From assembly GCA_010405405.1 (NCBI GenBank), contig MU004236.1, positions 793,457-857,456 on the forward strand: 64,000 nt of DNA. The letters run 5' to 3'. A program made the translations under genes and the position numbers. The first letter of the stretch is position 1. Each line of letters starts with the position of its first letter. Of this stretch, positions 2,769 through 61,202 are shown piece by piece. The DNA is from Microthyrium microscopicum. Its lineage: Eukaryota. Under the pieces are notes generated by a model, which saw nothing but the letters and a program-made list of their open reading frames with translations, was not told the origin of the DNA and did no database searches.

Positions 2769-2943
2769 AATTTAAGAAAGAAGAATTAAAAGAGAGGAAA
2801 GAGCACCTTATATAGAGATTTTAGATCAAATTAACTATAATCTAGCTTAGAATATAGTTAAACCAATTAGAATATAGTTAGTCTAATCTAAAATCTCTAT
2901 ATAAGTTGCCCTTCCCTCTCTTTTAATTCTTCTTTCTTAAATT
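2769..2943. repeat. Long inverted repeat/hairpin (~70-bp arms)
   Basis: aatttaagaaagaagaattaaaagagagg...ttaactata (2769-~2839) is the reverse complement of tatagtta...cttctttcttaaatt (~2873-2943). The few mismatches are mostly transitions. Confidence 0.9.
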
Positions 2944-3128
2944 ATTAAAGTTTTATCTTTTTAGTTTCTAGCTATAGCTAGCATCTAAAAGATATTATTT
3001 TTATATCCTTTTTTCCTCCTCTTTCTAGCTATAGTCTTCATCTAGCCTATCTTAGCCTAGTTTATAAGTTATTCTAATTTTTATAAAGATTTTTTTATTT
3101 TTTACTTTTATTAACTTTTTAAATTAGA

Positions 3129-4316: not shown

Positions 4317-7047
4317 TAGTTCTTATTTTTAGTTTTTGTTTTTACATCTACACTCATTTAGTTTTTCTTTTATACTAAAACAAAGGGAAAAGATAGCCTA
4401 GAAAATACAGTATTTTTTTCTAATTATAATGCATATCTTTTTATATCTTATCTTTTAGTTATAACTATAATAACTATTAAAGTATAATATTATTCTAAGA
4501 ATTTATATTATTAAAATTAAATTTAGATAAGAGAAACTAAATACGCTATACTATAGAGCCTAGTGTTCTCTATAGTATACTAAGTTTATTAAATTAAAAT
4601 TCTAAGTATTTACTAGTAATAATAAATAATTAAGAATATACATTTTTATATTAAATATTTATAATAATTATAACTATTATTTATACTAAATATAACTACT
4701 TATATATAGAACTAGCTATACTAAAGTAAATTATATCTTTATAACCTCTTTACTACTACTATAAAATAATATATAGTTACTTTTAAGTAATAAACATTAT
4801 AAAAAGATATATAACTACTATAAATAGTTAATTATAAACTAAAACTAACGTACTAGCTTATAATAGCTATATTTATTAGTATAATATAGTACAAATATTA
4901 TCTTATTCTCTTATAGTTATAGCTATAATAAATAAATAAGAAGTTTATTTATTTATTATATTATTTTATAAATCTATTTATATCTCTATAAATAATAGTA
5001 TATAAGAAAAACTAAGACAAGATTTAGATTCTCCTAGTCTAGAGCTATCAAATGCTATAGTTTTTATTAAAAAATAATTAAGTTTAGTATAAAAACTAGT
5101 ATTTACTATTACACTATTATAATAGTAATTATAATAGTTTTTACTAGAGTAGTATTATTAAATACTAGTATTAGAATAGAGTAATCTTAGAGCATACTAG
5201 ATAGTAGTATAGTAGAATAGCGCTAAAATTTTCTCGTACTAGTATTAGAATAGAGTAGACTAGACTAATAATAGAGTAGTTTATACTAAGTAGTTTACCA
5301 ACCCTGGAGGTAACGAACTCTGGGACCGAATGATAGCTAGGAAGGTACTCTTCTCGTAACTGTGACCTGATTGAATACCAAAGATGGTACTGGGCAGGCA
5401 TCTGCTCGTGGGTATCAAGGCAATTGTAACCTGCAACGGTTTGCTTCTTCGGGGTTCCTGAACAGGGCTCTCGAGTCTCGACAGATGCATCCCACGCCGC
5501 TCACCTGATTTGATAACATGTCCCTGGACTTCGATTCATCTCATCATTAACCCTGGAATGCATCAAGCAATTGGGCGGGCAGCTCTTAGAGTCAATCGAT
5601 CCCAAGCAATCCCAACCAGGAATCTGCACATGGCTCAAAACTGACGGTTTCTTGTCAAATCTGATCCTCTGGAACGAAGCCTTTTGGCCTCCCCAGCGCC
5701 CATGCAGCCTATCGCACGTTCCTTGGCTAGAAGGATGCATTGTGCAGATGTCGAGCGCGAGGTGCCCTGGATCCGGATATCAGTATTTGCAATATTGGTT
5801 TGCGGAGACAGCTTTTGGTGTTTGTCTGCCTCTCCGATTAAACAACGTCTTTAAACTCTCCACCACCAACCACACGCTTCCAACTCTGCGGCATCTGTAA
5901 TTCAGTCAATGCTCCACCATGTCTTGGACAATTTGCCAATTTAAGCACCTCTTTTGGCAATGGCTGGAGCCACAATACCGCCCCCGCTCTGGGCCCCCGT
6001 AAAGCCTGTCGAGCGGCTCGATTCCCATTTGCCGCCTGGTGTCACCCCCGTACAGAAACTATTCCTCTTTGGCAATCTCGTGGCTGAAGGCATCTCGCAA
6101 ATGCCCCTAGCTCCCCGTGCTCCCTTAGATGCCGTCGAGGGCGTTGGAGCGATTCTCAATCCTCTCCAGCCTCGAAGCCAACCTGCGTGGCCCCGGAAGT
6201 TGTGCTGGTGCATGCCACCCTATTTTCCTTTCCCCCATCGCTCACTGCTCAGAGCCTTGTCGCCCATCGTCCGTCTTCCAGTAGCACTTCCACCCAGGCT
6301 CTCAAGGCTCGCCAGCCTGGTCAGCGCTCAAGCTGGTGGTAACGCTGGTCCGGCACTCCGAAGAGCCTGGAGGCCATAATAATGGCTCATAGCATGGTCC
6401 AAGCATGCTCACTGGTCTCGCATGGGTCGTAAACAGACTATCTTTTCGACCTTCCCAGGCGTTCGAGCTTGAGACAGACGTCCAGGGGGCAATATTTGTC
6501 TTCGCTTCCCGCGCTGTTCCCGCTCTTGCATCCGTTCTAAGAGGCTTGCTCTCCACCTTACTAGCCTTGATCTTCCTGCATCTTCTACTTCTTCTTCATC
6601 TGCTGCTGCTGCTTGCTTGTGTTCCTGTGCTCTAATCCTACCCTTACTGCACTGTCGGATTACTTCCTGCACACGTCCGCCTTCCGTGCATTATCCTCAA
6701 CCTCCCCATCTTCGCATGTAGCAATACAACGACTTTGAGCTACCTTCCAACCGGTCCAAGTGTCTGTTTGTGCAAGCCGCTAAACGAACGGACGTACGGA
6801 GTAACTCGACATTGTTCATCCTCAGGAACTATCAAACCGGAGACATACCAGTTACATATTAGTGTACAACAAAGCATATACGCACCAGGATAGCTTCCTT
6901 TCGCCTTGATCGGTCAGCCTCTTCTCAGCCTCGTCCATCCCTTTCCACGTGTTTTGCGCTCTCAAATGTCGACATCCGTCCCAACATTAGAACATTAGCA
7001 GATAGACAGCTTTCTCTCTCACTCTGCAGGAGCTCAAGCCTCTGAGC

Positions 7048-8750
7048 ATGGACCCTGACCAACATCCCCACGACCAGAATAACGGGATGCATGACGTTCA
7101 TGGAATGTGGGTGGAAGGGGGAACCCCATATCAATCTCACCATCAATCTCCGGTTCATGAGTACCCTGGATTTGCATTCAATGGCATGTCAATGGATTCA
7201 GTATATGCGCCAAACTCCATGCCACCACCAACACGAAATACACAACCACAGCTCTATCCCCTTATAACAACACCATGGCCAAGTATGCTGACCTCCAGTC
7301 AATCGAATCATGGAACACCTGTATACAATTCACCTCCAGCTTCTGGAACTTCAGTATCAACACCAATGTCCGCACCTCCAACTTCAGGAAGGACATACGA
7401 CAGACCGAGAAGAACGTTAACAGATGTTGAACGGAGAAAAATGTGTGAATACTCGGAAACTCATCCGGGAGTAAAGCAAACGGAGATAGGAGGTAAGTTT
7501 AAAGAGTCAAAGCTCATCTACATGAAAAGCTAACAACTAGTCCAGCCATGTTTGGAGTGGAACGAAGGTATGCATATGTTGTGCTCTTTGCTTGTTCCCG
7601 CTGACCTGTGCACAGTACCGTTTCAAAGGTTCTGAGGAATAAAGAAAAATACCTATCCCAGGATGAGAGCGCAAAGACGCAGCTAAAGGCAAAAGGCAAA
7701 TTCCCAGACATTGAACGCGCACTTTCCAACTGGGCCAAAAATGAGAAAAAGCACAATCGACCAGTTACAGACGCGCAGATATTGGAGAAGTTCAAGCATT
7801 TTGCGAGAACAGTGAGAGATCCCGATCAACAACTCAAATCTGTCAATACCAGCTGGCTTGCTGGCTTCAAGCAAAAGAATGGTATCAACACTTCTAAATC
7901 GAGGAAGAATTCAGCCGCTGAAGTTGCCGATACAAGAGAAAGCGTGGAATCGAGTGTACCAACTCCAAACATATCACCAACTTCGCCTCAAATCAAGCGC
8001 GATGCGTCACCATCCGGTATTGATATTTTGAAAGAGGAGAAACTACCCAAGAAAATCAAGTCCGAAAGCCCACCTGCACATTTCTCAGACGCTGGCCATG
8101 GGCACCGCCCCTATGCTTCTATTGGGAGTGCCTTTACCGATGTTGGCTCAATATCGTTTTCTACTGACACACTCAGCCCGACGCCGTCGTTCTTTTCCAA
8201 TACCAATCCCTTCAATAACCAGCAACCTGTTCAGCCAGTACATGCTGGAATGAACACAGGATATCAGAACACTAGACCACGTAGTCAAACATTCCCGATA
8301 GGAACGAGTGCTGACAATGGTTCCTACGCATCGACACCTACCTCAGACGCGCAAATGTCACATTTTCTAATGGCATCCGGACCACTCGAATCAACCCCGG
8401 AGCTGCTTCCCACAGCTCATACGCAAGAATCCTTTCTTCCAACAACGTCAATGTCTAAAGAAGGCACTTCTTCCCCAGGTCTTGGTCTAATAGCATCATC
8501 ACCTCTTACTCCAGCAGCGTCAGTCGCATCAGTTTCAACGCCTTCTATTGACGAAACGCGACGAGCCTTGGAGGTTGTCCTTACCTTCATGAATCAACAG
8601 CATGCCATGAATGAGCAAGAATTCCAAGTGATGGCAAAGTTGATGGAGAAGCTTCGACTGCAATCCGGTCATGCTGGTGAGATACCTGGTAGCAGACTAC
8701 ACTCGATTAGTGAGGCTGTATTCCCTCTTGGACGCAGCATTGCCGAGTAA
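7048..8750 (+). CDS. CENP-B/Psq-type helix-turn-helix DNA-binding protein (no DDE domain); 3 exons
   Basis: RRTLTDVERRKMC...KQTEIG|AMFGVER|STVSKVL is the CENP-B N-terminal HTH, and GKFPDIERAL..W...W..GFK is the second HTH. Introns at ~7493-7545 and ~7568-7615 flank a 22-nt micro-exon. Confidence 0.85.
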
Positions 8751-14049: not shown

Positions 14050-14289
14050 TATCATTTATTCCTAGCGTTACGGAGGAATACTCGGCGCGCGCGCTGTGTG
14101 TAAGCCTTGCGAAACCACTACATCAACGTATGCGTATTTGTCATGAACACAGCTGTAGGTAGACCAACATTTCTTAAACAGGAAGAAATGGCCACTTTAG
14201 GAAATGCGAAGATCAATAAAGCAGTTTGTGCATTGATCGCCCTACATTGGCATAATTCTGCACAATTGCGTCAATCATCCTAGCTTAAG
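14050..14289 (+). repeat. Left copy of ~235-bp dispersed inverted repeat
   Basis: tatcatttattcctagcgtta...gcgcgcgcgctgtgtgtaagccttgcgaaaccactacatc...ggaagaaatggccactttaggaaat matches the reverse complement of 21559-21792. Confidence 0.9.
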
Positions 14290-14810
14290 AAAAGAAGTGT
14301 ACATGTATATGTAGATTCATTGTAGGCATGGGAACGTGGGACTTGAATCTCCCCGCACATGTACTTGATTTGAAGTACACTCCCATCAAGTAGTGCGATG
14401 GCCGCCATCGACTACGTTCAATATCAAGTGCGTTTACTCCCATATGGTGCGATGTGCAAACCATTCATTTCAATGATACCGTAATAGGAGAAAGTGACGA
14501 TTTCTGATTTACATGAGCCAATATGAGCTTTCGATGCTTACTAGGTTAACCAAAAAAATTCAAATAAAATGAAACTCGATCTTTTTCAAAACCAGTTCCG
14601 CTACCTGGCAGTTGGTCGTCATGTACCAAAATCTATTAGTAGTACAGGTGCTGTGGCCAAAGACTCTAATTTGCTGACTAGCTTGGGTGTCCCCGCACCA
14701 CTTAATGGAATCTTTTACGCCCTTCCACAAATTTCATAGCTTCGCTTTATTCTCAACCCGTCAACTCTAAGCAGTCCCATTTCCCGTACTTCTCAAAGCT
14801 TTCAGCGTTT

Positions 14811-16827: not shown

Positions 16828-19800
16828 ATGGCAGCCGGAATCATTACCAAAATTCGTCGAAAATGGAAGCGTGACGAAAGAAAGGTGAGTTCTTCAAGTT
16901 TAGTAAACATTTTGATAGCCTAAGTTTAATGACATGATTAGGACACAAGCAAGCAAATACATAAACCTGTGTCTATGATAGGGCCCTCCTCCAGTCAACT
17001 ATTCACGTCGACAACTGCTAGCATTCTTAGTTCTGCACAGCATGACGAATCATCTAGGGATGAACATAGCGAGAATGGCTTATCGCATCATCAACCCATG
17101 GACCGAGCGCTTATGATACATCTTGAGACTTGCTCTCGAGCTGCTTGCCCCTGCTCGGACTTGGATGATCTAGAGCATGGGATAGGTACACTGGACACAT
17201 CTTCCAAAAGTGATAAAACTTGGATTAGAGAGAAGTTGCAGAAGTCTATGCCAACACTCAAAGCTCTTCAGCCATGGATTGAAATCATTGATGCGGTTTC
17301 TCAAGTGAATCCAATCTCTGGGCAAGTCTCTGGCTGTGTCAAGGTCGCTTTGAAGGTAATGCCAAGTTCTCAAGTTCTTAACAATCGAAACTTGAATAAT
17401 TTCACTTACAACGAGATTTCTTTTAGTTGGCTGTGGTGATCGGAGACAAATATGACGAAGTGGTAAACTCTTTACAACACATTCGAGAGTTATTGATCGT
17501 TTTGGATTTGTATCAGAAAGATGGCTTGCACCCTTCCATGGTAAATGTATTACACCTAAGGTTCTAAATCCTGTTCAGTTTCCACTATACTGATTGTTCT
17601 ATAGGATATCATTGAGGCCTATGTAGAGATATTTGCGTTCATCTGTAGCGAAAACGCGCATCAACGCTCTCGCAAGGAGATCGAAGATCGGCTTGCAAGA
17701 AGCGTACATCGATTCGAGTCTAAGGCTACTCCAATGATGCTGAAAGACCTTGGAGAATTACGCATGCTTCTAACAACTACAGAGATCAAACAAAAAGGTA
17801 TTCTTAAGCTTAATCATTCAATCTACTTTAGCTCCAGCCTTGACACATCACAGCGAGCGATTGCCTGAAGGAAATACATGAAACTGGGACACACAATGAA
17901 GAGAGTATTGATATCACACGCCCAGCTCAGGGAACTTGCAATTGGTAAGGTCTTCTAAGTTTTGTCATTGCCTGATTCATAAGCATGGGTCTTAGGAGAG
18001 GACTTACACTTCTCTTCTCCGCCTAGAACAAGTGCGTGCCTTACAGCAAACGTGTACTAATGAGATTCTAAGGGTTTACGATTGCTCAACATCCATAGAA
18101 ATACAGCCCTGGCGTGATTGGAGAGATTCCAAAAATTCCGGCATTTTGTTGTTGACTGGCGGCATTGGAGCTGGCAAGTCGACTCTTGCTCTAAACGTTG
18201 TTGATGCGCTTCGCAATCATCCAATTGAAAACTACAGGTCTGTCAGTGCTTCGTTTTGCAAAGCGCAAACAGGTAAGACAGTTCTGTGTCAAATTACATT
18301 CCTTGACGACGTCTCGATCAAACCGCTTAGGGATGGCTGCCAACATTTGATGGCTCCCATAGAATGCGATGCTGATCGAGTTTTATGGTTACCAAGAGAT
18401 GCGATGGTCGTAGTATCTTTTATAAGCGATCTCTGGTTGTCATTCCATGCTGAGAACTTCTAGGTCACAACAACTTCCTGGCGATTTTACGTGGACTACT
18501 CTATGGAGTCTCACAAGAAAATGAGGAAGCACTGGACAATCTTGTGCGCTATGGAGACAAATCCAATTCTGGCAAGGCAGGAAAAGACTTCAATGCCTTC
18601 CAAAGAGATTCCGGGCTTCGTGAATGCTTCAAAAACAGCATTGCATCCCGAAAGAAGGAGGTTTGTCTTGTTGTTGACGGCTTAGACGAATGCGAAAAGA
18701 ACTCCCGGCTGCAGCTCCTAGATTTCTTCATTACCATCATAAAAGATGCCGAAAGCGTCAAGTCGAGTCCACCTGTGAAGGTTTTGATTCTTTCCCAGCC
18801 ACTAAGTACAGTGATCGAAAAGCTGAGAGGACTACCCTTCTTGGTAAGACTTGATTTGGAGAATATGCGAACGTCCGATGAGACACGGCGGGTTATAGAA
18901 TATTACGTTGGATCTAGGCTACCTCAGCTAGTTCCCTCGCTTTACCTTCAACTAACTTCACAACTACTGGAGAAGTCAGAAGGCTGTCTTCAATGGGTAG
19001 TGGTGGCTATAAATTTCCTCAGCGAAGCCGGAGTAAGCAGTCTCTTCGATGTTGGACGAGAGCTGGAAGAGCTGTCAAACGGCTCAGGGGGTTTGTCTGA
19101 CACGTACTTAAAGCTTTTTGCCCGACAATTCGAAGGTACATTGGCTGACTATGCCGATTGTGCCTTGCGTTTGATAGCTGGCTCAGCTAGACTGCTGACA
19201 ACCAGAGAGCTTGCGAATGCCATGATATTGAGATCAAGTACGCTGAATAGCAGCATATCGTCCAAGAAGGATTTCGAGGAAAAGGTAATGCTTGTTTACA
19301 AATCCCTTCCTTTGGTAATCTTATACTGACCAACGTCAGGCACTGCTTCATCGCGTGAAATGTCTGGAGCCTTTTGTCAACATTTCCAGCAGCTCAACGC
19401 GGATTTCCATGCACAATTCGTTGAAGGAACTCATATCTAGTGTTTCGAGTCTGAAAACACCCCGTAGCAATTCATCTATTGGTGGTATTAGCTCGCTAGA
19501 CTTGAGCACGGTATTAGCCAATACTTGCTTGGACTTTCTTCTCCTACCATATTTCAGAGAACATGATGTCTGGGCAGACTTTGAATTGGACTACGAAACT
19601 GACGATTGGTTGATGCGTGTCCAATCAGACAATAATGAAGATGATAAACCTGAAGAGGGAGAAAAGGGGCCGGCATTCTTCGCTTATGCTGCCAAATATT
19701 GGGCTTTACATCTTGCTAGTTCAGAGTCCCCCTCGCAACTCATCCATAAGTCCATCACCTTATCAGAGACAGGATCACGACAATGCTACAACTGGTGGAA

Positions 19801-21136
19801 ACAATATAATTCTGGAATGTCGTGGGAATCACCACAGAACCCAAGCCCACTCCTTGTCGCTATTTGGTTTGGTCACAAGTTTACTGTCCAAACCATTGTA
19901 CAAAACTCAAATGTTGAGCCAAGTTCTGCTCTTGCAACTGGTGCAATTGATTATGAGGCCCTGGAACTTGCAATAAGCGTGGGCGATGTTGACCCGTTTC
20001 GGTTGTTATTTGATGCCGTGGAAGATGAGCAAATCGAAGCCAACGGGTAGGTTATGGCATATGACGGCGGCTATTAATGGTTGGAAACTGACAAATCACA
20101 GGCATTATCTGTTACTGTCCGCCCTTGAGAGCCAACAGAAAGATATATTCAGTATACTGATCACCGATTCGAGGATTAAACTAACGCATCGAACGAACTC
20201 GAGCAGCGAGCCACGAGGCCGTACCATACTCTCGAAATTGGCTAGGAATGGTAATTCTCAAAGCTTGCAATCTCTTCTGAAACTTTTGCAAACGAGCAGG
20301 CGAGGCGAAGTCGAGGCTCTTCTTTCTGACGAGGGCGACCAAAGCAACGAACCGCTTCCAGGAGGATGCTCACCTCTTTGGTACGCCGTCAATTATGGGT
20401 ATACTCCATTTGTGGAATTAATTTGCAGCTTGGATGCAGACCTTATTCGTTCTCAACTACATTGTATCGGAACATTTGGTGATCATATCTTGATTGCCGC
20501 TGCACGAGGTGGAGACGAACGCATCATGAAAACGCTGCTAAATCTGTGTCCAGAATACGTCGATAAGCCAGGTGAGTTGGGTATTTATCCTTCATTGTTG
20601 TACATCTGGTAAAGTTCAACGGGTGAAACTTGGAGGAAGGCATCCTGAAAGCTTACCAGTTGAATGACATGATAAATGGTGCTCTTCCATTAAGTTTCAC
20701 ATTTCCCATTCCGCTTTATGCGTAGAAGGTGCTTAAATTCCCAGCGCATTTGATGGGAGTTTAAAGGTATCTCATATTCATCGGAAAGCAAGAAAACTAA
20801 CTAAATCTAGGTCCTGGAAACCATACGCCACTCTCCATGATCAGGTATAATTCGGATTACAAAGCTCCAAGGGTTGCCAGAGTTCTTCTAGACACATGCA
20901 AGGTAAATATCGAATCTACTGATGAGCATGGTAATACTCCATTGATGGGAGCATTTAGAGCTGGTAAATTGGAGCTCTGCAAAGTACTCCTTCAACATGG
21001 CGCCGACATCTCCAAGGTCATCAAATCCTCCGAACACGACAGCCATATATGTCTCGCAACCACTGGCTTTCCTGCGCAAGACCACAAGATGCAGAATGAC
21101 CTTTTCGAGTTCTGTCGCCGGTTGAATCGTGTTTAA
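16828..21136 (+). CDS. NLR-like STAND protein: helical N-terminal domain + NACHT NTPase + ankyrin repeats; many exons
   Basis: GTCNW pre-P-loop, Walker A LLTGGIGAGKST, Walker B CLVVDGLDEC, KVLILSQP, post-NACHT YAAKYWALH, and ankyrin-type motifs SPLWYAVNYG, HILIAAARGG, GNTPLMGAFRAGKLELCKVLLQHGAD. The frame is maintained across the splice junctions I checked. Confidence 0.88.
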
Positions 21137-21558
21137 GGGGATCGGAGGCTAGACGATTCAGCATGTGGGCATGAGAAGCAGATCCAAGCATCACGAACCA
21201 GAAAACAGCACATTAGGGGCTGGATAATTACTTCCTAAATGTTGGCTGTCCTGCCTTGGTTATCTTGAGTGGCCGGTTTCGACTCTGGGTTGTTAGACGA
21301 AAAGACATGCCAAGTCAAACTGTAGCATAACACGCAGTTCATTTATATCAGTCATTTGCGCTTACGGCACAATGTTGCCAGGTAGAATCATCAATGCTGA
21401 TAAACTCCATTATAATCAGCTTGCCTTGAAGCGAATGTCGTTCCTGTTTGGGACAGTTCGGTGTTTTGTTACAGGTAGTTCATCTAATCCAGCACATGTA
21501 AGGGGAGATTTAGATCCCATGGTTCTATAGTCATTATGGATCTAGACACGTCTTTCCC

Positions 21559-21792
21559 TAAGGTAGAATAATTAACGTAATTACATAGAATTATGCTAAT
21601 ATAGGGCAATTAATGCATAAACTACTATGTCAATTTTCGTATTTCCTAAAGTAGCCATTTCTTCCTATTTAGGAAATGCTAGTCTTAAGCTATGTTTATA
21701 GCAAACACGTATACGCCGATGTAGTAGTTTCGCAAGGCTTACACAGCGCGCGCGCTCCAAGCCTTCCCCCATAACGCTAGGAATAAACGATA
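21559..21792 (-). repeat. Right copy of ~235-bp dispersed inverted repeat (more RIP-mutated)
   Basis: Reverse complement aligns with 14050-14289. Differences are dominated by C>T/G>A changes. Confidence 0.9.
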
Positions 21793-21972
21793 CCCAAGAT
21801 ATATGAGGTACGATTCAATCTATTTACAAAAGGGAAGAAGGGTATCTATAATTGCATCCAGCCAGTAACGCCAGATGTGTAGAAATCCTCTTTACCATCA
21901 AGAATAGGGTTGTAGCTGACGATGATCTATTACATGTTCGTTGACTCAAAGCTTTCCGTGCTCTCAGTCATT

Positions 21973-24900
21973 CTAGAGGGGTGGATATTCTGCCGATGGT
22001 GACCAATTTGATTGTTGTATAGATGGAATGCTTGACTGTCTCCGTTGATACTTGCGGGAGCGTTTGGACTGAAGCTCAGCGTAAAATTCTTGACATAGTC
22101 GTTCCACAACATACGACTCCACAACGTCGCTCTCGGCTTCCCTGTCGTCTCCCGGGCGAAAACTGCCACATATCATCTTCTGAACCTTTCCAGTCCAATG
22201 AGTATGATCTACAACATCACTATTCAAGATTAGCAAGGTGATCGGCTTCAAATTCACCAGTATACGTACGGAAACGGTTGACCGTTGATAGTGTACTCTT
22301 GTTCAAGGCAAAGCTGATCATCAAGGCGTTGGAGCCTGCTTTTCGACGTCGGATCATGACCTACGCGAATGAATTGTATTGTGTAATGGCGATCCTTCAA
22401 ATTCGGCCATCTACTCGTCATTGCTCTGATGAAGGCGACAAGCTCTGTTTCTACCTTGTTTTCTGGTTCCATATCGGACCAAAGCCCATCAGTGATGACG
22501 AGTAAAGTGCTTGCGCGAGGTGGACTGGATTTTGGGAGTTGCAGATACTCGGTGTAGCGTTTTTGTAATATTTCCGCCATATCCGTCCTCTTCTCGACTC
22601 TACCTTCCCTCTGCCAAATTTGTGGGCTGAGAAGTACTTCCCGAAACTTGTCTGCGACGTTAGATTTGACCATTGGTAGAGAATCAAGGCTGTTAGTAAA
22701 GTATAAGCTCAATCCATTTTCAACACAGCCCGTCATATGTTGGGCCAAAGTTTCCACGATAAATGCCACAAGAAAGCGGGAGTGTTCCGAAGAGCTAGAA
22801 TTGTCGACAATAATAGTCTAAGCATGGTTTAGTGAACTGTTCACTATATCTCATGGTATTGACTCACGATATCTCGGTTCTGCAAACGAGTTGCGAAATA
22901 ATCAGATCCGGATCGTTTCTCACCAGACTTGAAAATTCCTTCAAATTTTTGCATAAATCCTTTTGAATTACTCACGGAACGACTCATTCTTCGCCGAGAT
23001 GTGAAGATGTCGTATGGCAGTTCCTCAATTGATTGTGGATCTGCATTCCGGTACGAGTTTGAAAGGCCGTAGTTATGTGGCTGTTGTGAGAGTTGAGCGT
23101 CTGATTGTTTTGGGCTGGATAATGGAGTGCGAATTACTTCAAAAGAAGCCGAGCTTCGTTGGTCTTTAATGTTCTTGTGACTATGAAATGATCCTTGAGG
23201 TGTATTGGGAATATGAAGACCTGACGTGAGAGGAGCAGAGACAGGGTAAGACGGTTGGCCATCTGGCCTAACGGTTGGGATCTCATCATGCCCAAGCTTC
23301 GGGCTAGAAATTCGTGGGCTCTGAGGTTGATCTATGGCTGGTTCTTTTGCACTGTTCGTGGTGCTCATTTCCTCGGGCCTACCTTGAAGAATTTCCATGC
23401 CTGGACTACATCCTTGCAACTCTATCGGCTGAACTGGTCCACCATTTGTCAAAGTCTCGTTAGCCACTAGTGCTCGGGGACGAGGTTCTTTGAGAGTTTG
23501 TTGAACAGTTAGATGCGCTGAAGGCCTACTAATTGACAGCTTTGGTACATCTAAACTAGGAGTCCGCACGCTGAGAGGCTTTGGATATAACGGTTGTTGA
23601 TCCGTGGTCTCTACTGGTTGTTCAGACTCGCGGTGCGTAGAGAGTGTGGGTACTAAGCTTGTTGTGGGTTGTCTCACTGGCGAGCGAGAAGAATTAGGTA
23701 TAGACACGCGTCTGCGATGGGAAATGCCACCGAGTTGAGGTTGCATCCCCTCAGGCTGTGGTGGTGCTTGCTTGTGGCGTTTGCTTAGAATTTCTTGCAA
23801 AATTTCTTTCCGATGAGGAGTTGGCGTTAGGACAACTTTGTCAAGCTTGTCTGACTTCTCAATGCGTCTTGATTTAGTTGATCGCTGGAATGGAATGGTG
23901 AAGGTCTTTGGTCCTACGGCTATGTGGAATCCATTCTGGCTAGAGTTGGAAGACTCAGACGTAGCCTCATAAGCTGCTCTCTCAATGGCCAGAAGAAGTT
24001 GATCTATTGATGCATCGTCATCGTGCTCTGCAATGATGCCCTCTTTGATTTTTTTCTTATAAGCTGTGTCTGCAAGTTGTTGATGATCTGCCCATTTCTC
24101 ACATATGACCGTGAAGCCTAGACGAGAGGACGCCTTTGGGAGCAGCATATACCTTTCGACCAACTCCAGGACAAAAGCTGTGACCGTATCGCAAACTCGA
24201 ATGCTATTCTTCAAGCGCCGAATCCAGCCTTCGATAGCGGGGAGCATTTTATGCCCGTCGTGAAAGGAGTCCTGGGCAGCCAAAGACGCTGACTCGTCAA
24301 ATATGGCCCTCAGATTTCGGTCGTGCTTCTCGTCTTTGTCATTGATCTGCCTAATGCTCATTATCCGAAGCTTCTCGAATTGTAAGACGCCTTGGCGTCC
24401 CAGCACAACCCAGGTAGCAAACACGAGGAGAACGCAACCAAACGACCAAGTGTCGATGTTGTGAGTCACTTGTTTACCATCCTGGATCTCGGGTGCCCCT
24501 TAGTGTTGTTAGCGTGACCTAAAGCATAAAAGCACATCAGTCATATATACCATATGTTTTCGTAAACCCTGAAGCTGCTAGCATATCTCCTTGTGTGTCA
24601 CGACTAAATGCTGAAAACCCAAAATCTATCAGCTTGAAGTTGTTTTTCACGATTAAAATGTTATCTGGTTTAACATCCGAATGACAACTACGTATAAGTT
24701 AGTGAGTTGCCAGGTAAATGTGAAGCCACATGACAAGCCTCAGTGAAGTAATACATACCCTCGCCAGTCGGAGTCAGGAAGCTGCAGATTTTGCATTTTC
24801 TTGAGGACCAATGCAATATCAAAAACACTATTATAGGAGCGCAGAATCTCCTCCATCGACGCTGGAGGTGAGATACCTGGGTCCGCCATATATTCGTCTA

Positions 24901-25914
24901 GATCCTGTGCACCGTATTCTAGCAAAAGATTGTGGCGTTCTTCCCAAGCGTGACCTGTATATTCGGAGATTGAGAACGAACCAAAATAGCGAATGATGCC
25001 ATCAAGACGAAATGTTTTTGAAGAACGTTCTGGTGGTGATAGACGTGATAGTATATTCTTCTCATGGTGGAAAAGAGTTTGAAACTCGTTGGAGTACGAC
25101 TTCAAAGCCATGATGTAACACTGAGGCGAATTAGCATAGATCCAATGGGGGACACACCGAAGTCACGAACCTTTCCGTGTTTCTCCAATCTCTCTGGGGG
25201 ACCAAGTGTGTTCCGTAAGGTTTCTCCAACGAATATCTCGGGGACAGCTACCTTGTAAACGATCGACGTGCCGCCTTCGCCAATTCGGATCTTTTCACAG
25301 AAAGGCAGCACAACAGCTTCCGTATAGTGCTCCGCCATACCTAGATTGATCTCAACGACACAAAACGACCATTTTGAGTCTTCCCATGCTTTAATGACAT
25401 CCTCTAGCAATTCATTGTTAGGATATCGTTCCTGTAGATGCTGAGACAGGGCGTCTCCGTAGATGCGCCCCTCAAGATGTGTCTTGTCAATGTTTGCATC
25501 CACAAAATGGGCATCTCGAAAGTCTTTGAGAAAACGGCCATGGCCAACCGCTAACAAGATAGCGAGAACTCGGACGCATCGTTGCTTGCCCTCAAGAATA
25601 TCCTCACGAGATATCGGGAATGGTGACTGGCCTGTATTGTGGTCCGGCGTCCTTTGAGAAAGCTCGTCGATAATGTCATCGATATTGTCTTCGATCCATC
25701 TTTCAATAGCGGGGGTGTTATAAAAGGTGTACCGCCCAGGCGCGTCCCCTTCATCTTTACTGGCGCCATCATCAGAGTATTCTGGTGATGTGTAGTGAGA
25801 TAGGCTCCATTGTTGCTTGAGTAAGCGCTGAAATGTCTCCGACGGGCTTTTACGCTCTTCTCTTTCGCGGCTGAGCTCTCGGCTTTCGAATTGCACGGCC
25901 GGTCGCGCAGCCAT
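21973..25914 (-). CDS. Ser/Thr protein kinase with long low-complexity linker and C-terminal vWA domain; multi-exon
   Basis: Gly loop IGEGGTSIVYKV, ALKSY, spliced catalytic loop CHSDVKPDNIL, LIDFG, GAPE, IDTWSFGCV. The C-terminus has IIVDNSSS (MIDAS DxSxS), LVITDG, IQFIRVG and DVVD...VQKMICGS. Stop at 21973. Confidence 0.85.
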
Positions 25915-26819
25915 GACACGAAACGAGTTTGACGACCTGACTGCACTTGACTGCGCTATTTTCAAAAAGAGTTGTTAAATATAATGGCGGTAGGACTCAG
26001 TCTTCGCTAGGTGGGAAGCTCGAAGCTCCAATCTACTATGCACTGGCCGTTGTTGACGGCTAACAACGCACTTGAGATGGTGATTATGAGAGGAGTTTAT
26101 GTAGAGCTCATGGTCAGTGAAACTAAGAAAACAAACTTTTCAGTCATGGGAAAATGAATGGGAATGTTGTGTCACCCATGGAAGCATGGACGGACAGCGT
26201 ATAAGAGGATTGAACCTCAGCCTGACGACGATTCAAGGCCAAAATACATTGTGTTGCCCACTTCGATGTTTGATGGGCTGAGCATATCGCAACCGGCAAG
26301 CAGCCGCACCCGTCAAATGGATCCGCAAAGTCCCTACGCAGTGGGAAATCTTCTCTCATGCTCCACTCCACAGACAAGCCTCTCAGCCTGATGCATATTA
26401 TCCTGATGGTGGGTACGAAAAGGGTTCGGCCTTGACATTGGCAGGCGCAGTCGCGCAGCATGCGGGTTCGCTCTCAGCTCAATTCGCCCTATCATCAATG
26501 CTTCTGGCACAAAGGTCAGCCCACTATTGACGAGCCGTAACTCAGAGGTCTTTTGTGCAAGGCACAGCCGGTGAGAGGTGTTCTTTCATAACCAATCGTT
26601 AGAGGGAAAGAAGTTGGAGGCCGGCGAGCGGCAGTTGGACTCGAGTGAGGCACGTCCACGGAATGGTAGTGCTAACCTTCTTGGGAATAGCGCGCAATTT
26701 CTCTACCCTGCCGCGCCTACTACTCTACTGACCGGACTGCGCTCTTGTTCTTATTGCTTTCATAAGTAACGCTACTGGTCGCTTGAGATAAGTTACAATA
26801 CATCGGCCAAAGCATGTGT

Positions 26820-28675
26820 CTACACTATGTTCCCCGAGGAGTCATTCTTCAGCATGTCGGTCTCTCGCTTGCGCTGGAAGATCGCAGACCAGCCTCCACG
26901 ATTTCGAGCTATCTTGGACATGTTGTACATTGCTATAGAAGCGAAAAATGTCAAGACAGTCAGTGGCAAGGTTACTTGTAGCCATCTATACATGGCAGCG
27001 CTTGAGAAAGTTCCTTCAGTCGGTGGGCCTCCTGGGTTCTGATATTTCACCACATCCGTACTAAAAAAAGTCTACGCTATGGTCAGCTAAATCAAATAGA
27101 AGCAAGGTAGGGAAACGTACCGAGACGAACGTTGCAGGCAAATAAATCAGAGTGATCAAGGTGATAACTCCAACTACTGCTGCTTCTTGTTCCATATGCC
27201 GATTCATCTCCTCAAGCCGTGTGGCCGACTGACCTTGAGAATGATATTGGATCTTCAGATCGGTCAGTACCTAGTAAATAATAAGGACCTTTGACACCGA
27301 AAATACTCACTAAATCTTTCCTGTCTCTAATTGCCTTGGATAGTAAGTTCCCTCTCAGGATAATAGACTCTAAACAATCAGTGATAGAATCAAGCTCGAA
27401 TTGGAACCTCTCCACGTCATCTTTGCAGTGATTCAGGGCTTGCGGAAAGCCTTTTCTCCTGTTTACATTGCCGTAATATCGTTTGAGAGATCTCATCACT
27501 CGAATATCACTTCCCAGCAGCATGTTAATCTCGTCAACTTTCTCCTGAAGAAACTGTAGATTCTGTATATCCTCTGGCTTGTACATTTTATGTGCAGCAT
27601 CAGGGTCGAGTGGACCGTAGATGGCAAGTGATGACTGGTTTGTTAGAATTTGTGTCTAAAATCAACTTCCAGTGTTTTACTCACATTTGTATCCACTTGG
27701 TTCTCCAGGGACTGTAGAAAGCGGTGCCAATTTCGAGTCGCCCATCGACAGTAAAGCAGGTGCGTAGATAAACTTGTTCTGAAACAGTTCTCTAGATTGT
27801 CAAAAGCTTGATCTTCTTCTCGACCGATTCTTGATGTTTGATCTCGGAACATGTTATGAATATCCTCTCCAGCCTTGGTCACAATCCATAAAGTGCTTCC
27901 GTCTGTGACATCAAACTGATGGTGAATCGCCACATGTCTCAATGACCAACTACTTGGAGATGAAACCATTTCATCTCTGGCCGTTACTCCTTTGAGGCTA
28001 TAGCACAACTGTATTTGGTGTCCACTTCTGACGTTATAAGGGTCTGACGGCGTCAAATTTGGACCGTCAAGAAAGGTCTGTTCAGAGAAGTCATTAAGCC
28101 TCATGTCCCGATCATTCGATAGTATGGAGAAGGTCAGCATAGCATCTACATAAGCAGGCATAACCTGATGTATTGCGAAGAGAGACAGGACAGATTGGCG
28201 AGTGACTCTCAACCGGGACTGATTGTCATCAGACCATAAATAACTGCAGAATGTTAGAACTCAACAAAGATAACTGCATTATATCTTACACAAATCGACA
28301 TTTCGGATTGACTTTGCTCAAAGTGGCCGTCTCTTTTGTGCTATCGTTCTGATCAACACAGAGTGAAATACCTAACCACTCGTTCAACATGTCGGGAGTT
28401 TGAATCCGTCTTTTGACCAGTTCTATGCTTTGTTAGCAGGTGATTCGCGAGATGTAAAGCTCAGACTTGCCTCTCCCATCGTCTCCTCTAAAATCTCTGA
28501 ATCTTATTTGAAACGTTTTCATTTCCTCGTCGTTATGTTGATCGATGAATATGTCATTCTCAGCTTGTTTCAGTCGTTGGTAGTAGAGCTCCAGGTCTGC
28601 AGGAAAGGTTCCTGCTGGTCGTATAGCCAGACCAACTGGAAAACGATCCCATCGTAATAACGGAAGACTCGACAT
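26820..28675 (-). CDS. Fungal CorA-like protein (alpha/beta N-terminus, long helices, two C-terminal TM helices); multi-exon
   Basis: Spliced PKCRFV...SRLRVT...HQVMPAYVD, QIQLCYSLKGV, WSLRHVAIHHQFD...LWIVTK and coiled helices. These are followed by TM1 VITLITLIYLPATFVS-TFFSTD and TM2 WLQVTLPLTVLTFF. Confidence 0.8.
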
Positions 28676-29209
28676 TGCCCGGTATATCGAACTCTATGCC
28701 AATCTAATTTTGAACCCTGTTCTTGAATGAAAATTTGTTCTGTTTCACTAAGCTATCTCATCATCTGAGTAGCATTCAATGGCATATTTGAACTTCTCAT
28801 ATTCTATACAGTTGCCAGGCACATGTGGCTGTGAGCGTTACAGTGCCTCATGAGATGCCTCGCAAGTTTGTTGTATTGCCGGATGTATGACACAAGACTC
28901 TCTGGCCCAATGAATCACGCGCATATATTTGTTGAAGCTCAGCCTGTCCGTACTAGGCGCCGTGACACACTGCGAGCGTCCAGCTGGCTCACCGGTCATA
29001 CTCAATAAAATACGCCTCAGCCTGATCCCACCCACCCACTGAAATAATACGTGTATGTCGGGCAAAATACGAGGCTTGCATTAACTCAGGCTTTTCAAGC
29101 TTCAAACAAGTGGCAATCTATACCTTCAAAACAAGAAATCATTTTATTGTGCCTATCTTTGCTAGTTAAAGGGCTAAGGCGACATCTGTCCCGCCCTCAG
29201 CACCATGAA

Positions 29210-29800
29210 TTATTCTTCCTCAGGCTCTGGAGACTCATTGGGACTTCTCTGGGACGTTATCACAGCCGCATCTTTGCTGTCATCCATCTGCTGCGCCGTT
29301 CCTTCGGCCTGCCCGATCTGACGGGAGTGACGAAGGTTGCTTTGACTCAAGATGTCTTTTTGGTACAGATCTCTTATCTTTGTCAGCTCGGACTCTTCCT
29401 TCTATTTCATGATTAGTTGGTGTTCATACGCTTCTAGCATGTAGAGCAATTCCTCACTCTTGTCAGGTTGAAAGTCTTTGGAAGCTCAAACACCCATGAG
29501 TCCTGTATCTAGAAAAATATTTAGGGCGAGAACGATACATTGAAACATTGGAGCGCTCACGTATTTCTCTTTGAAGTCCCACGATCTTTCTTCCAATTTT
29601 GGCCATTTCTTGTGAAGATATTCCTGTATCTTGAGCCATGGAAATGATGAGTAAGCCTTGAACTTGACCTGCTCCCGATCTTTCTTCGCCGTCGTACTGT
29701 CGTCTGTCCTTTGTCGCCTAACCTTGGCTAAGGTTGAGATGGTACTCAAATTTGAGCCAGTTCGCGTAGTCTTCCGTGAGGGTGGTGGTGGCGTCGCCAT
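29210..29800 (-). CDS. Small (160 aa) hypothetical protein; 3 exons
   Basis: Exons 29800-29561, 29508-29458 and 29401-29210 with GTGAG donors and AG acceptors splice in frame: ...KIQEYLHKKWPKLEERSWDFKEKY|IQDSWVFELPKTFNLTR|KEESELTKIRDLY...EPEEE*. Confidence 0.7.
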
Positions 29801-36869: not shown

Positions 36870-38900
36870 TTACTCGGGATAATGGTAGTACTCCAAAGCT
36901 TCATCTGAGTAGTAGGGGTTTGTCTCAACTTGTGGCGGCGAAGGTGCAACTGTTCGAGGCTGAGACTCATGGTTCTGCTGGTTCGTTTGGATATAATCCT
37001 GCAGCATTCGCCACTTGCTATCGTCGGTAAGATCTGGTGGTGGGCGGGTTGGCGGCGCTATGTTATCTTTATATGGCTGTCGACCTGGTGTAGGAACATT
37101 GTCGCGTGGAGGAGGATGGTACTGCGTTGGCGGCGGGTTTTGCTGCTGTGGCTGCTGTTGCTGCTGCTGATTTGAGTTTGGCGTAGGCGCTGGACGTGGT
37201 GCTAGGACTGGAGAGGTACCAGGACGTACATTGGAATCAGGGCGGTTGTAGTAATCACCGTTGTCACCACCAGGGGCTGCGTTCGGTGGTGCTGGTCGAG
37301 GAGCAGGCACCGGATGATAGATTGGATACTCGGGGTAGTTGGGAGCTGGGTTGGTTGGAGTCGGCTGGGGGTGGTGGTTAGGCTGAGGATTGTACTGCTC
37401 TCCGTGATTATTGGTAACTTGACCAGTCACGGCTGGCCATCCGTTTGACATGGCGTTGGCGTTGAGATCGGTGCGAGTTGGTCGAGCTTTTGGTCCGGGC
37501 ATATTCTGGTGCTCAGGAACGTTCTCATATGGCGAGCCCGGAACGTGTGCTGGCCATGGATGAAGTTCAGGTTTGGGTCGACCTTGATGCTCTACCATAT
37601 CCTCGCCTTGGCTTGGGTAACCAGGTGGCGGTCGAACAGGTGCTTCTGGCGGATAGGGAGGTCCTACCCAGTTTGGTTGCGGCGGTAGTCCTGGGGGCAT
37701 ATAATGAGGTGATGCATTTTGCTGTTCGTGAAGATTTGCCGTAGGTGTTGGGTATGGGTGCGGGTACACTGGCTGTCTAGACGGTGGTTGGGCATGATGA
37801 CCCTTTTCTGCTCCTGTGCCATGTCCTGCGCTTCCCATGGTGCCGGCCTCATCGTACTCCTTTGTGCTATCTCTATAGTCTTGGGGAGGCTTTGGTGCCC
37901 AGTATTCACCTGGTTGCTGGTGATACGGAGGGTAATCGCCCGATGGCGATACTGTTGGATAGTAGCCTCCGTTGGGGATACTTCCATGACCCTTAGGTTC
38001 TGGTGGGTGGTTATACGGGTTTTGCTGTGGGGGCGACCATCCTCCTCCATTGGGGATACTTCCATGACCCTTAGGTTCTGGTGGGTGGTTATACGGGTGT
38101 TGCTGTGGTTGCGACCATCCTCCTCCGTTGGGGATACTTCCATGACCCTTAGGTTCTGATGGGTGGTTATATGGGTTTTGCTGTGGTTGCGGCCATCCTC
38201 CTCCGTTGGGGATACTTCCATGACCCTTATGCTCTGATGGGTGGTTATACGGGTTTTGCTGTGGTTGCGACCATCCTCCTCCGCCACCTTGATATGGTCT
38301 TACTTCATTATAGTCTAATTGAACCCAGCCAGAAACAGGTGTCGGCATAGACGACACAGTGATCGTCTTAGTCTCAGTCTTCATCTCAGCTGAAGCAACT
38401 TGATTTGGTGAGGGATAATAATCCGGCCGCGGTCCAATCATCTCGATGCCTTTGGTAGGAGATACAATAATAGTGATATCACCATTCAGCGCCGGGTTCT
38501 TATATGTTGCGTGATCCGTATCCTGCTGTGCTTGATTAGGATATGGATACCAAGGTGCCTGATTTGGAGTGGCAGGCACTCCGCCTGGACGCGGATCATT
38601 ATCATAACTTTCAGGTCCTGTATGATCATCTTGTTCCGATGGATAAGATGTGACTAATGTCGGTCCGTGATGTGTGCCTTTGGAAGGGCGTCCACCTTTG
38701 CCTTTGCCCGGCCGCTTTGCCTTTTTGCCGCTTTTCAAAGGTCGCTTAGGCTTATATGGTTGTGGCGATGATGAATATAGAGGCCGTCTGGGTGGTTCAT
38801 ATGATAGGATGGAGTCTGCTACTTGGCCATCTGTAGGATATGCTGCAGTTGTGCCAATAGCGAGAACTGTGACGGCATAGAGCGCCGAAGCGTAACGCAT
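36870..38900 (-). CDS. Secreted Pro/Gln/Gly/His-rich low-complexity protein with tandem repeats
   Basis: Single long ORF. The ATG at 38900 gives the signal-peptide-like MRYASALYAVTVLAIGTTAA. It contains four 26-aa repeats. Confidence 0.75.
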   Translation of the reverse strand: MRYASALYAVTVLAIGTTAAYPTDGQVADSILSYEPPRRPLYSSSPQPYKPKRPLKSGKKAKRPGKGKGGRPSKGTHHGPTLVTSYPSEQDDHTGPESYDNDPRPGGVPATPNQAPWYPYPNQAQQDTDHATYKNPALNGDITIIVSPTKGIEMIGPRPDYYPSPNQVASAEMKTETKTITVSSMPTPVSGWVQLDYNEVRPYQGGGGGWSQPQQNPYNHPSEHKGHGSIPNGGGWPQPQQNPYNHPSEPKGHGSIPNGGGWSQPQQHPYNHPPEPKGHGSIPNGGGWSPPQQNPYNHPPEPKGHGSIPNGGYYPTVSPSGDYPPYHQQPGEYWAPKPPQDYRDSTKEYDEAGTMGSAGHGTGAEKGHHAQPPSRQPVYPHPYPTPTANLHEQQNASPHYMPPGLPPQPNWVGPPYPPEAPVRPPPGYPSQGEDMVEHQGRPKPELHPWPAHVPGSPYENVPEHQNMPGPKARPTRTDLNANAMSNGWPAVTGQVTNNHGEQYNPQPNHHPQPTPTNPAPNYPEYPIYHPVPAPRPAPPNAAPGGDNGDYYNRPDSNVRPGTSPVLAPRPAPTPNSNQQQQQQPQQQNPPPTQYHPPPRDNVPTPGRQPYKDNIAPPTRPPPDLTDDSKWRMLQDYIQTNQQNHESQPRTVAPSPPQVETNPYYSDEALEYYHYPE
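37967..38283 (-). repeat. Coding tandem repeat, 4 x 78 bp (GGGW[SP]QPQQNPYNHP[SP]EPKGHGSIPN)
   Basis: ccatcctcctcc recurs at 78-bp spacing (38037, 38115, 38193, 38271). Confidence 0.92.
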
Positions 38901-39702
38901 TGTCACTAGAACGCGATAAGTACAGCGACAGTTCTGAGTAAATCGATTTGACGAAGCGATGCAGAGGTGAAGCAAAGGCGATGGTAGCTGGTAGGATATT
39001 TCTTGCAGGCCTTATGGCAAGTGTGCTGTGTGCAGACTTGTGGTTCAACTAAAGAGTTAGTTCCGATGGAAGCGGCCATCGCGACACCAATCTCCTGTTC
39101 TTGCCACTTTGCCGCACTTATAATTCGAGATGGCCAGAACACTTTAGCAAGTTGGCGCTGTGTGAAATATGCGGCTCAAACTTGAGACACATTATGTTCT
39201 CCACCTTTCCAAAAGCTTCAGTCCTTCTGAAAACAAGTTGTCTATTGCAATTACCGCTCCATATGGACACTATGTCCATGCTGCTGCTCTTGCGTGTGAT
39301 AACTGGTTCTTGTGCTCAGAGGATTCACCGATATGCGTCTACAGTTTGGTAGACTAACGACACATGCGTTCTAAAAATAGATAGCATAGTAGGCAGCCAC
39401 ACGTGGATCGGTTGACTCGAGATGACTGAACCACTTGAAAAATTGTATTTGTGTAATATTTTTAAGGACTGCCAGGTCTATACAGTGGTACGACAAGTTT
39501 GGTACTTGGTAGAAGCTGGCATTCTATGACTGGACAACACAGCTGGTGTGTGTCCATCGACATTTGGCTTTGCATGATACGCGTCCTTTCGAACTTTCAA
39601 GGTGCCTGGATCTCGTTGCGTCCTGTAGTATTTCGAGTTCCACATACCCCGTGTCACTCATTAAATGTGACGCTCGATCAGTATATTGGTGGGCAGTCCA
39701 GA

Positions 39703-60941: not shown

Positions 60942-61202
60942 AATGAAGGTTCTGCGGCGGCTGCGGGAGATGAGAGTGAGGAGGAAGAGGAAGAAGAGGA
61001 GGAAAAGCCTGGTCCGGGGTCTATCAGCGACCCTTTTGAGCCTGATATGTCGTTGGCGGGCAAAACACGTCGTCAGGTAGCTAAGGAAAAGAAGGAAAAG
61101 GAGGAAAAGTAGTAATGTAATTAGTCCAAGAAATACAATTCTTAATATTTGCTCGTGTCAATTTCTATTTTTCTTAATATTCGCGATATACCCAAAATAG
61201 TG

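Follow-up and report, generated by a model that had tools for sequence, protein, structure and literature searches.

Which of the genes in a compact group on contig MU004236.1 of Microthyrium microscopicum belong together, and what might they do as a group? The stretch analyzed, here called the window, comprises 64,000 nucleotides (assembly GCA_010405405.1, positions 793,457 to 857,456 of the forward strand). Within it, three genes encoding a small protein, a membrane protein resembling the Mg2+ channel CorA, and a protein kinase fused to a vWA (von Willebrand factor A) domain face a gene for a NACHT-ankyrin protein of the NOD-like receptor (NLR) type. An earlier note, made from the letters of the window, had proposed that all four genes form one module of fungal immunity or cell death. 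The reading that we favor, at a probability of about 0.6, is that the three minus-strand genes are an ancient conserved cassette of Pezizomycotina, encoding a kinase-switched channel of CorA fold with an accessory small protein, and that the NLR gene is a separate neighbor.

The region was read on both strands, spliced models were built, and the models were then compared with the deposited proteins and with spliced contigs. A single public run, X1, covers the stretch; it is kept as contigs, and its type is a guess (possibly RNA). Because contigs cannot show transcript ends, strand or level, X1 was used only for splice sites and for the existence of spliced forms. Four intact genes were found at the places given in the earlier note, with the start codons of the NLR and the small gene at 16828 and 29800, respectively. 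The small, CorA-like and kinase-vWA genes are indeed all on the minus strand, co-oriented and converging on the NLR. Nine GT..AG joints in the X1 contigs matched the predicted introns of the NLR gene, with the donor of intron 3 at 17547, and all five introns of the kinase-vWA gene were present as CT..AC joints. For the CorA-like gene, the joint 27071/27121 was seen among the joints listed, and a contig piece ended at 28471, an exon end; for the small gene, a contig piece ended at 29401, an exon boundary. One 12,467-nt contig spanned 16751-29401, including all four genes with their introns removed plus the spacers between them. Given this contig, transcripts of neighboring genes may overlap or read through.

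In the deposited CorA-like protein (P0003, 439 aa) the intron at 27310 is left unspliced, so that the last two exons, and with them both transmembrane (TM) helices (26820-27310), are missing. Our 534-aa model was preferred because the spliced contigs and full-length relatives (e.g., P0005) agree with it, and a deposited model that had lost its membrane part is now corrected. Between 28423 and 28470 the CorA-like gene has a GC-AG intron with a perfect CTAAC branch site, and the deposited model has the same junction.

The evidence that the three minus-strand genes form a set comes from their relatives. Metagenome contigs were scanned with an alignment of CorA-like proteins (A1); of 203 pattern matches 85 were confirmed, and 80 loci were kept. 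These were dereplicated (≥95% nucleotide identity over ≥400 nt) into 59 groups, the longest locus of each being used. The loci were searched by tblastn with the window proteins and with parts of P0004, a protein of Cudoniella acicularis. The small gene was searched for with two iterated hidden Markov models (HMMs), one started from clade I sequences and the other, independently, from those of clade II.

Thirteen groups had ≥5 kb to either side of the CorA-like gene, and each of them showed a kinase from the window's kinase family at a distance of 1.3-3.6 kb from it, in tandem downstream as in the window (8 groups), divergent upstream (4) or convergent (1). The vWA part was present on the kinase in 12 of the 13, and the small gene was also present in 10. 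Co-location beyond chance had been set beforehand as a condition for a module, and chance adjacency of the three minus-strand genes was rejected, since it recurs in 13/13 long dereplicated loci. When groups with ≥3 kb downstream were considered (n = 22), 13 were tandem, 5 had another arrangement and 4 were without a kinase. Of the 31 groups with ≥1.5 kb upstream, 23 had the small gene, which began or ended no further than 0.5-1.1 kb ahead of the CorA-like gene. Both HMMs landed on the same places, and all matches but one (L007) were on the CorA-like strand. Wherever it was detected, the small gene was directly upstream of the CorA-like gene, even where the kinase had moved to the other side; the small protein is the partner tied most closely to the channel gene.

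Two named genomes added to this picture. Following the order of the window, the deposited P0004 model (1542 aa) joins a small-like N-terminus to a CorA-like part and to a kinase from the cassette's family, with ankyrin repeats after it; it is either a merged model or a fusion, with same-strand adjacency either way. P0002 of Bathelium mastoideum is an orthologue of the kinase-vWA protein, with 32% identity over both parts. What follows the kinase in P0004 (residues 1362-1485) is ankyrin repeats rather than a vWA domain, either by module exchange or as a merged fourth gene. Locus L055 (11826-14636, minus strand) is the only long locus with the kinase convergent to the CorA-like gene, and neither a vWA part nor a small gene was detected there.

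A quick maximum-likelihood tree of the CorA-like core (57 rows) showed two deep clades (SH-aLRT 99 each), with kinase pairing in both. Apart from metabolic clusters and a handful of gene pairs in immunity or cell death, fungi seldom keep their gene order. Because the three genes stay together through tandem, divergent and convergent rearrangement and across two deep clades, a functional unit is indicated. The four-gene proposal of the earlier note was supported, as regards a co-located set, for the small, CorA-like and kinase-vWA genes and not for the NLR, of which no relative was found in the 80 loci.

The membrane protein has been labeled by family. PF26616 (PF26616.1; UniRef name 'CorA-like transporter domain') is the precomputed domain of P0003 and of all 120 listed relatives; our hmmscan against a local Pfam gave no PF26616 row for the CorA-like proteins, and the assignment is that of the precomputed label. 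P0005, which shares 47% identity with the largest CorA-like exon of the window, was modeled by AlphaFold2 with 58 relatives (pLDDT 87, pTM 0.77). When this model was submitted to Foldseek, every listed match was Thermotoga maritima CorA (E 1.9e-9, probability 1.00, ∼450 aligned columns, TM-score 0.57 on the target). At the sequence level the similarity is faint: against Pfam PF01544, P0005 scored 16.1 bits (cut-off 27), and P0003, P0007, P0009 and the window exons had no match, although PF01544 is among the precomputed domains for part of the family. A family profile run against PDB sequences found no CorA, only a chance match to a designed protein.

The GMN motif defines Mg2+-selective CorA channels. 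This signature was absent from the outer end of the first TM helix (TM1), where the window reads YLPATFVS-TFFSTD, and none was seen in the loci read. The site is occupied by a nearly invariant LPATFVSTxFxTD, with T454, F456, T458 and D459 nearly invariant in the 58 relatives. The intron that directly follows LP[AG]TF[VI]S at the end of TM1 keeps its place in nearly every locus, in the one clade as in the other, and is, for that reason, in an old position. These data show that (i) by its modeled relative, the CorA-like protein has the CorA fold and carries STD at the site of GMN; and (ii) judged from its sequence by the GMN criterion, it does not belong to the Mg2+-selective CorA family. Like the CorA/MIT Mg2+ channels (T. 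maritima CorA, PF01544), it has a cytosolic alpha/beta domain, a very long stalk helix leading into TM1, a short outer loop and a second TM helix (TM2), and its P-x-T-F at the end of TM1 recalls the MPLTF motif of CorA. Unlike them, it reads S-T-D within TFFSTD in place of GMN, has a larger cytosolic part (∼410 aa), shows PF01544 similarity near or below threshold, and is encoded by a gene paired with a kinase-vWA gene.

The kinase-vWA protein is built of a family-specific N-terminal region, a protein kinase, a ∼350-aa linker that reads as low-complexity in composition, and the vWA domain. The Pkinase match was well above threshold (61.7 bits vs. a cut-off of 31.7), and the window contains the glycine loop GEGGTS, the lysine in IMALK, the catalytic loop HSDVKPDN, the DFG and the APE. 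Since all catalytic motifs are present, the kinase should be active; by its sequence it would be an active-type, catalytically competent kinase of the non-RD class. The non-RD state (H-x-D, x never R), together with D[FL]G, was found in 15/15 loci with the motif readable in one exon, of 26 kinase-bearing loci; position x was A, Q, G, N, Y or L in the relatives, and P0002 and P0004 are non-RD too. No other kinase family matched the window kinase at E ≤1 except PK_Tyr_Ser-Thr and APH. Only generic similarity was observed against PDB sequences (PRP4 best, 5e-9, catalytic loop only), and only generic kinase matches were returned by PADLOC. The N-terminal 215 aa matched only unnamed Ascomycota clusters in the ESM Atlas, with scores <0.85.

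Residues of the metal ion-dependent adhesion site (MIDAS) type were recognized in the C-terminal domain: VDNSSSS (D-N-S-S-S), the T of TDM and the D of ITDG. An alignment of 16 relatives (A2) conserves D-x-[SAG]-x-[ST], then T-D, then L-T-D-G-x-W; the first Ser varies (S/A/G), and the D, the second S/T, the T and the D are kept. Among these relatives PF00092 matched 7/16 (best 6e-7) and VWA_2 matched 4/16. The window vWA exon alone had no Pfam match, and the vWA part of P0002 had one at E 0.15 only. A vWA profile matched the vWA domain of anthrax toxin receptor 1 weakly in the PDB (E 0.026). An AlphaFold2 model of the relative in L061 (pLDDT 80) retrieved in Foldseek, among the matches listed, vWA domains or vWA-containing proteins throughout (ANTXR1/2, Rpn10, factor B, integrin I), with ANTXR2 best at 1.2e-6. 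By family matches and modeled fold, the C-terminal domain is a vWA domain with MIDAS-type residues. Pfam searches on single exons gave neither the vWA nor the CorA assignment; the vWA was recognized from the Pfam matches of relatives and from the fold, and CorA from the fold search.

The small protein has no Pfam match. Its core is Y-x(2,3)-[FL]-x-W-x(2)-[IL]-x(2)-[YF]-L-x(3)-[WF]-P at the end of exon 1, and D-x-W-x-F-x(2)-P in exon 2. When compared by HMMER with 1.84 billion representatives it gave six matches at E ≤1e-3, namely itself, three true relatives (P0012, P0015 and P0016) and two repeat proteins judged spurious. When the small protein was modeled in complex with the cytosolic portion of the CorA-like protein from the window, the result (score 0.01, mark 0.34) spoke neither for nor against an interaction.

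The CorA-like family is large. A profile search gave at least 624 protein clusters at E ≤1e-5 among 8000 candidates scored, and the best 120 of the 624 include species that we take to be Dothideo-, Eurotio-, Sordario-, Leotio- and Lecanoromycetes. Coleophoma crateriformis has two members with distinct locus tags. In the quick tree the named species are not sorted by class. The window's CorA-like protein is on a long branch (1.45 changes per column vs. a median of 0.31) and is 30-39% identical to the 58 relatives in alignment A5, which are themselves 43-59% identical to P0005.

Selection was estimated by the Nei-Gojobori method on two pairs of close loci. In L001 vs. L003 the nucleotide identity was 92.5-94% in the flanks, 92.7% in the CorA-like gene and 88% in the kinase-vWA gene; in L066 vs. 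L070 the values were 96.2%, 95.9% and 94%, respectively. The dN/dS ratios were 0.14 and 0.24 for the CorA-like gene, 0.29 and 0.53 for the kinase, 0.33 and 0.27 for the vWA part, 0.49 for the N-terminal region of the kinase, 0.56 for the linker, 0.40 for the small gene (60 codons only) and 0.19 for a flanking peptidase. All parts of the cassette are under purifying selection (0.14-0.56), and in these two pairs the kinase changes more quickly than the channel. The possibility of a selfish element, of the toxin-antidote or drive type, was also considered, and it is unlikely given the spread over five classes and the purifying selection on all parts.

The NLR gene is an intact gene for a NACHT-type P-loop and ankyrin repeats. 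Pfam searches on single exons gave NPHP3_N/NACHT-type P-loop matches (1.9e-8 and 1.2e-9) and Ank/Ank_2 matches (2.6e-9 and 6.5e-8); the N-terminal domain had no Pfam match at E ≤0.01. A pseudogene was rejected, since its many changes of frame are due to nine real introns that the X1 contigs skip. The gene and 2.4 kb upstream of it are enclosed by an inverted repeat of ∼320 bp, with core arms of 105 nt that are 83% complementary; the cassette and a PXA gene are directly outside the two arms. The repeat fits, and does not prove, a separate insertion, in which the NLR was possibly brought in with the repeat-bounded segment. The repeat itself may be the marker of an inserted segment or two copies of a small element.

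The wider surroundings are much as the earlier note had described them. The flanking genes are of housekeeping type (PXA on one side; NT-C2, SDR, Rgp1 and SNF2 on the other), and repeats are near, namely the inverted repeat around the NLR, a fragment of a Tc5-type transposase and an AT-rich block. G+C content is ∼45-50% across the window except in that block, at 1-5.5 kb, which resembles repeats degraded by repeat-induced point mutation. Two tandem arrays were also noted. Coordinates of the features are collected in Table 1.

Table 1. Positions of genes, domains, repeats and flanking features; positions refer to the window, and loci named L are related loci from metagenome contigs.
Feature	Position	Strand	Remarks
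CorA-like gene	28675-26820	-	6 exons, 534 aa, two C-terminal TM helices
CorA-like exons 1-4	28675-28471, 28422-28290, 28243-27685, 27634-27311	-	GC-AG intron after exon 1
CorA-like exon 5	27252-27121	-	TM1, ends ...YLPATFVS
CorA-like exon 6	27071-26820	-	TFFSTD loop and TM2
Kinase-vWA gene	25914-21973	-	6 exons, 1222 aa; model identical to deposited P0001
Kinase-vWA exons	25914-25171, 25120-24759, 24687-24551, 24498-22868, 22817-22270, 22219-21973	-	five introns in spliced contigs
Protein kinase catalytic domain	24332-25302	-	∼residues 205-470; Pkinase 9.2e-17, catalytic-loop exon alone 2.4e-8
vWA domain	22150-22817 (intron 22269-22220 within)	-	assigned from MIDAS-type residues, PF00092 matches of relatives, and fold of a relative
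Small gene	29800-29210	-	3 exons (29800-29561, 29508-29458, 29401-29210), 160 aa; identical to deposited P0011
NACHT-ankyrin NLR gene	16828-21136	+	10 exons, 1132 aa; open frame once nine introns are removed
NLR Walker A	18158-18184	+	GGIGAGKST, by sequence reading
NLR ankyrin repeats	20102-21136	+	Pfam
Inverted repeat, left copy, ∼320 bp	14050-14373		324 nt at 75% identity with 21792-21483
Inverted repeat, right copy	21483-21792		between the stop codons of NLR and kinase-vWA genes
AT-rich block	1-5500		22-31% G+C
Transposase fragment	7605-8750		open reading frame with Tc5/pogo-type transposase DNA-binding domain
Tandem array, 78-nt period	37888-38355		within a long open reading frame, 36870-39011 (no Pfam match)
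Tandem array, 38-nt period	61127-61734		11 overlapping 228-nt matches, 38 nt apart
L001 flank			NPHP3_N with WD40, 4.5 kb off; serine carboxypeptidase gene between
L008, L038 and L042 flanks			HET; Pfam on flank open reading frames
L060 flank			HET and WD40; Pfam on flank open reading frames

How might a cassette of these three proteins work? The CorA-like protein would assemble into an oligomeric channel of the CorA type, with an ion selectivity other than the GMN-dependent one for Mg2+. The kinase-vWA protein would be its switch: the vWA/MIDAS domain may dock on a partner or ligand, and the kinase may change gating by phosphorylating either the channel's large cytosolic domain or the small protein. 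The small protein may be an accessory or inhibitory subunit of the channel. From the findings above we infer oligomerization, ion flux, a biological role and phosphorylation, be it of the channel or of the small protein; that the kinase acts on the channel is taken from linkage alone, which is a point against the cassette reading. Three further points weigh against it. Among the 22 groups with ≥3 kb downstream, L018, L024, L030 and L072 are without a kinase; each has <2.3 kb upstream, so a divergent kinase is possible there. The small gene went undetected in 8 of the 31 groups with sufficient upstream sequence (L043/L074, L053/L072, L066/L070, L079, L031, L055, L071 and L078). Finally, the synteny evidence consists of metagenome contigs and one merged model from a named genome.

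The competing readings differ in what they add to or take from the cassette. The original proposal, a four-gene circuit in which an NLR sensor acts through the kinase-vWA protein on a CorA-like pore and the small protein serves as adaptor or inhibitor, draws on the convergence of the NLR with the kinase-vWA gene (837 bp between the stop codons, the spacer being covered by X1 contigs) and on the company that the cassette keeps elsewhere. In a Pfam survey of 278 six-frame open reading frames of ≥140 aa from 17 long loci, HET or NACHT/WD40 genes were found within 10 kb in 5/17, which looks higher than the assumed base rate of HET/NLR genes in these fungi, an assumption that is a reservation on the defense role considered below. 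These flanking genes, however, differ in type, distance and strand, and other genes may intervene, as the serine carboxypeptidase gene does in L001; the remaining 12 long loci have only neighbors of housekeeping type or without assignment. With six pieces of the NLR as tblastn queries (E <1e-3), the 80 loci yielded no relative of its NACHT or ankyrin parts, nor of the ankyrin part of P0004, and the inverted repeat around the NLR fits a separate insertion. We regard the four-gene circuit as very improbable, and the tendency of the cassette toward HET/NLR neighborhoods as a lead rather than as evidence for a fixed partner. No better standing is given to the view that the genes share regulation or chromatin only, with no direct coupling of their products. 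Their close spacing and the 12,467-nt contig, by which transcripts may overlap, agree with it, but a linkage that keeps the kinase within 1.3-3.6 kb through all three arrangements, and that is found in both deep clades although the genes further out change from one locus to the next, is more than pure co-regulation would account for, and this view is likewise very improbable.

The more serious question concerns the role of the cassette. Non-RD kinases are associated with innate immune receptors. In our estimate a conditional ion flux triggered by danger, stress or nonself, immune or cell-death-like in kind, comes not far short of an even chance, because the kinase is non-RD, plant kinase-vWA fusions occur in immunity (PMC10260399), the C-terminal module is exchangeable, the neighborhoods are rich in HET/NLR genes, and fungal cell-death genes tend to cluster (PMC12881547). 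Further leads in this direction are the variable C-terminal module (ankyrin in P0004, no vWA match in L055) and a kinase that evolves faster than the channel. Two findings count against a defense role: the channel is under strong purifying selection, and the family is widely spread. The high allelic diversity that the earlier note would have looked for did not appear either, since the two near-allelic pairs showed no hyper-diversity. As for relatives elsewhere, no PADLOC model was matched by P0005, P0003, P0007 or the small protein, and among 43 pattern matches in 185,579 prokaryotic species genomes 0 relatives were confirmed. Regulated cation homeostasis, suggested by strong constraint and a wide spread together with the invariant pore loop, is possible at somewhat longer odds, and the remainder falls to something else. 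In its most ordinary form, such a role would be to transport divalent cations with altered selectivity; a dedicated kinase would tune the transporter, its metal-binding vWA/MIDAS domain serving as cation sensor, and the cassette would have no part in immunity or cell death. The CorA fold, the nearly invariant motif of the pore loop, the low dN/dS of the channel without allelic hyper-diversity, the presence in five classes of Pezizomycotina and the existence of spliced contigs in run X1 all agree with this form. It is at odds with the absence of the GMN motif of Mg2+-selective CorA, with a tree that does not follow the classes of the named species, and with a C-terminal module that appears to vary among vWA, ankyrin (P0004) and none detected (L055), an unusual variation in a sensor dedicated to metals. 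Links with immunity elsewhere moreover exist for non-RD kinases and, in the case of Lr9, for a fusion of kinase and vWA domain. We consider this ordinary role unlikely, if well short of negligible.

The cassette reading was also compared with systems of similar parts. The bacterial TerY-P triad consists of a vWA protein (TerY), a PP2C phosphatase and a Ser/Thr kinase, and is associated with biological conflict. It shares with the cassette the presence of a vWA domain together with a Ser/Thr kinase; it differs in that its components, PP2C included, are separate genes, whereas here vWA and kinase are one polypeptide and the partner is CorA-like. No PP2C match was found among the scanned open reading frames of the window or the 278 flanking ones of the 17 loci. 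The parallels drawn in the earlier note to TerY-P and to the CorA effectors of type III CRISPR systems therefore hold as analogies only, there being no PP2C and no PADLOC match for the CorA-like or small proteins. In type III CRISPR systems, CorA-family effectors are reported to be activated by SAM-AMP, a nucleotide second messenger (PMC10600005, PMC12255297). The likeness is that of a CorA-family membrane protein used as the conditional output of sensing and not as a housekeeping Mg2+ channel; the difference is that the CRISPR effectors are prokaryotic, gated by a second messenger, and not known to have a kinase, vWA domain or small partner.

In plants, wheat Lr9 (WTK6-vWA) is a kinase with a C-terminal vWA domain, for which a role in immunity has been proposed with the vWA part as recognition or decoy module (PMC10260399). 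In contrast to the fungal protein, it has a vWA/Vwaint pair and a kinase of the receptor-like kinase type, and that paper, in the part available, mentions neither a CorA-like nor a small gene linked to it. The fungal kinase is only generically related to known kinases, and the plant and fungal fusions are likely of independent origin. Clusters of two or three genes are described for regulated cell death in fungi, such as an NLR with HeLo/HELL effectors or a gasdermin with a protease (PMC12881547). The cassette resembles them as a compact set of a regulatory enzyme and a membrane-targeting protein, confined, as far as seen, to filamentous ascomycetes and sometimes near HET/NLR genes. It differs in being without HeLo/HELL, gasdermin, protease or amyloid motif, in that an NLR is not conserved, and in that the candidate executioner has the CorA fold. 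A search of that review by terms gave no mention of CorA proteins, and vWA appears there only in the legend of an NLR domain figure. The proposed logic is also that of RIPK3-MLKL necroptosis, in which a kinase phosphorylates and activates a membrane-permeabilizing partner (PMC12881547). Unlike there, the membrane partners are non-homologous (a four-helix bundle vs. the CorA fold), no RHIM is present, and the coupling in the cassette is read from linkage only.

Taken together, the cassette points to a functional unit that is apparently undescribed. As the earlier note had supposed, no description of the cassette or of PF26616 proteins was found in targeted searches of the literature; supplements of genome papers may list such genes without comment. 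A partner can now be assigned to each of three groups of hypothetical proteins, namely PF26616 (at least 624 clusters), a divergent kinase-vWA family and a small protein without a family. If the unit is a regulated cation transporter, it would represent a new selectivity class of proteins with the CorA fold. If it is a kinase-gated pore, it would be a new type of executioner in fungal regulated cell death, and would link the defense logic of fungi, plants (kinase-vWA) and prokaryotes (CorA effectors). At its boldest, and on balance unlikely, this would be a cell-death or danger pathway found across Pezizomycotina, in which a non-RD kinase senses through its exchangeable module and opens a CorA-type pore without GMN by phosphorylation, with the small protein as brake. 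Such a pathway, if true, would be a fungal counterpart of RIPK3-MLKL logic built on the membrane fold of a type III CRISPR effector.

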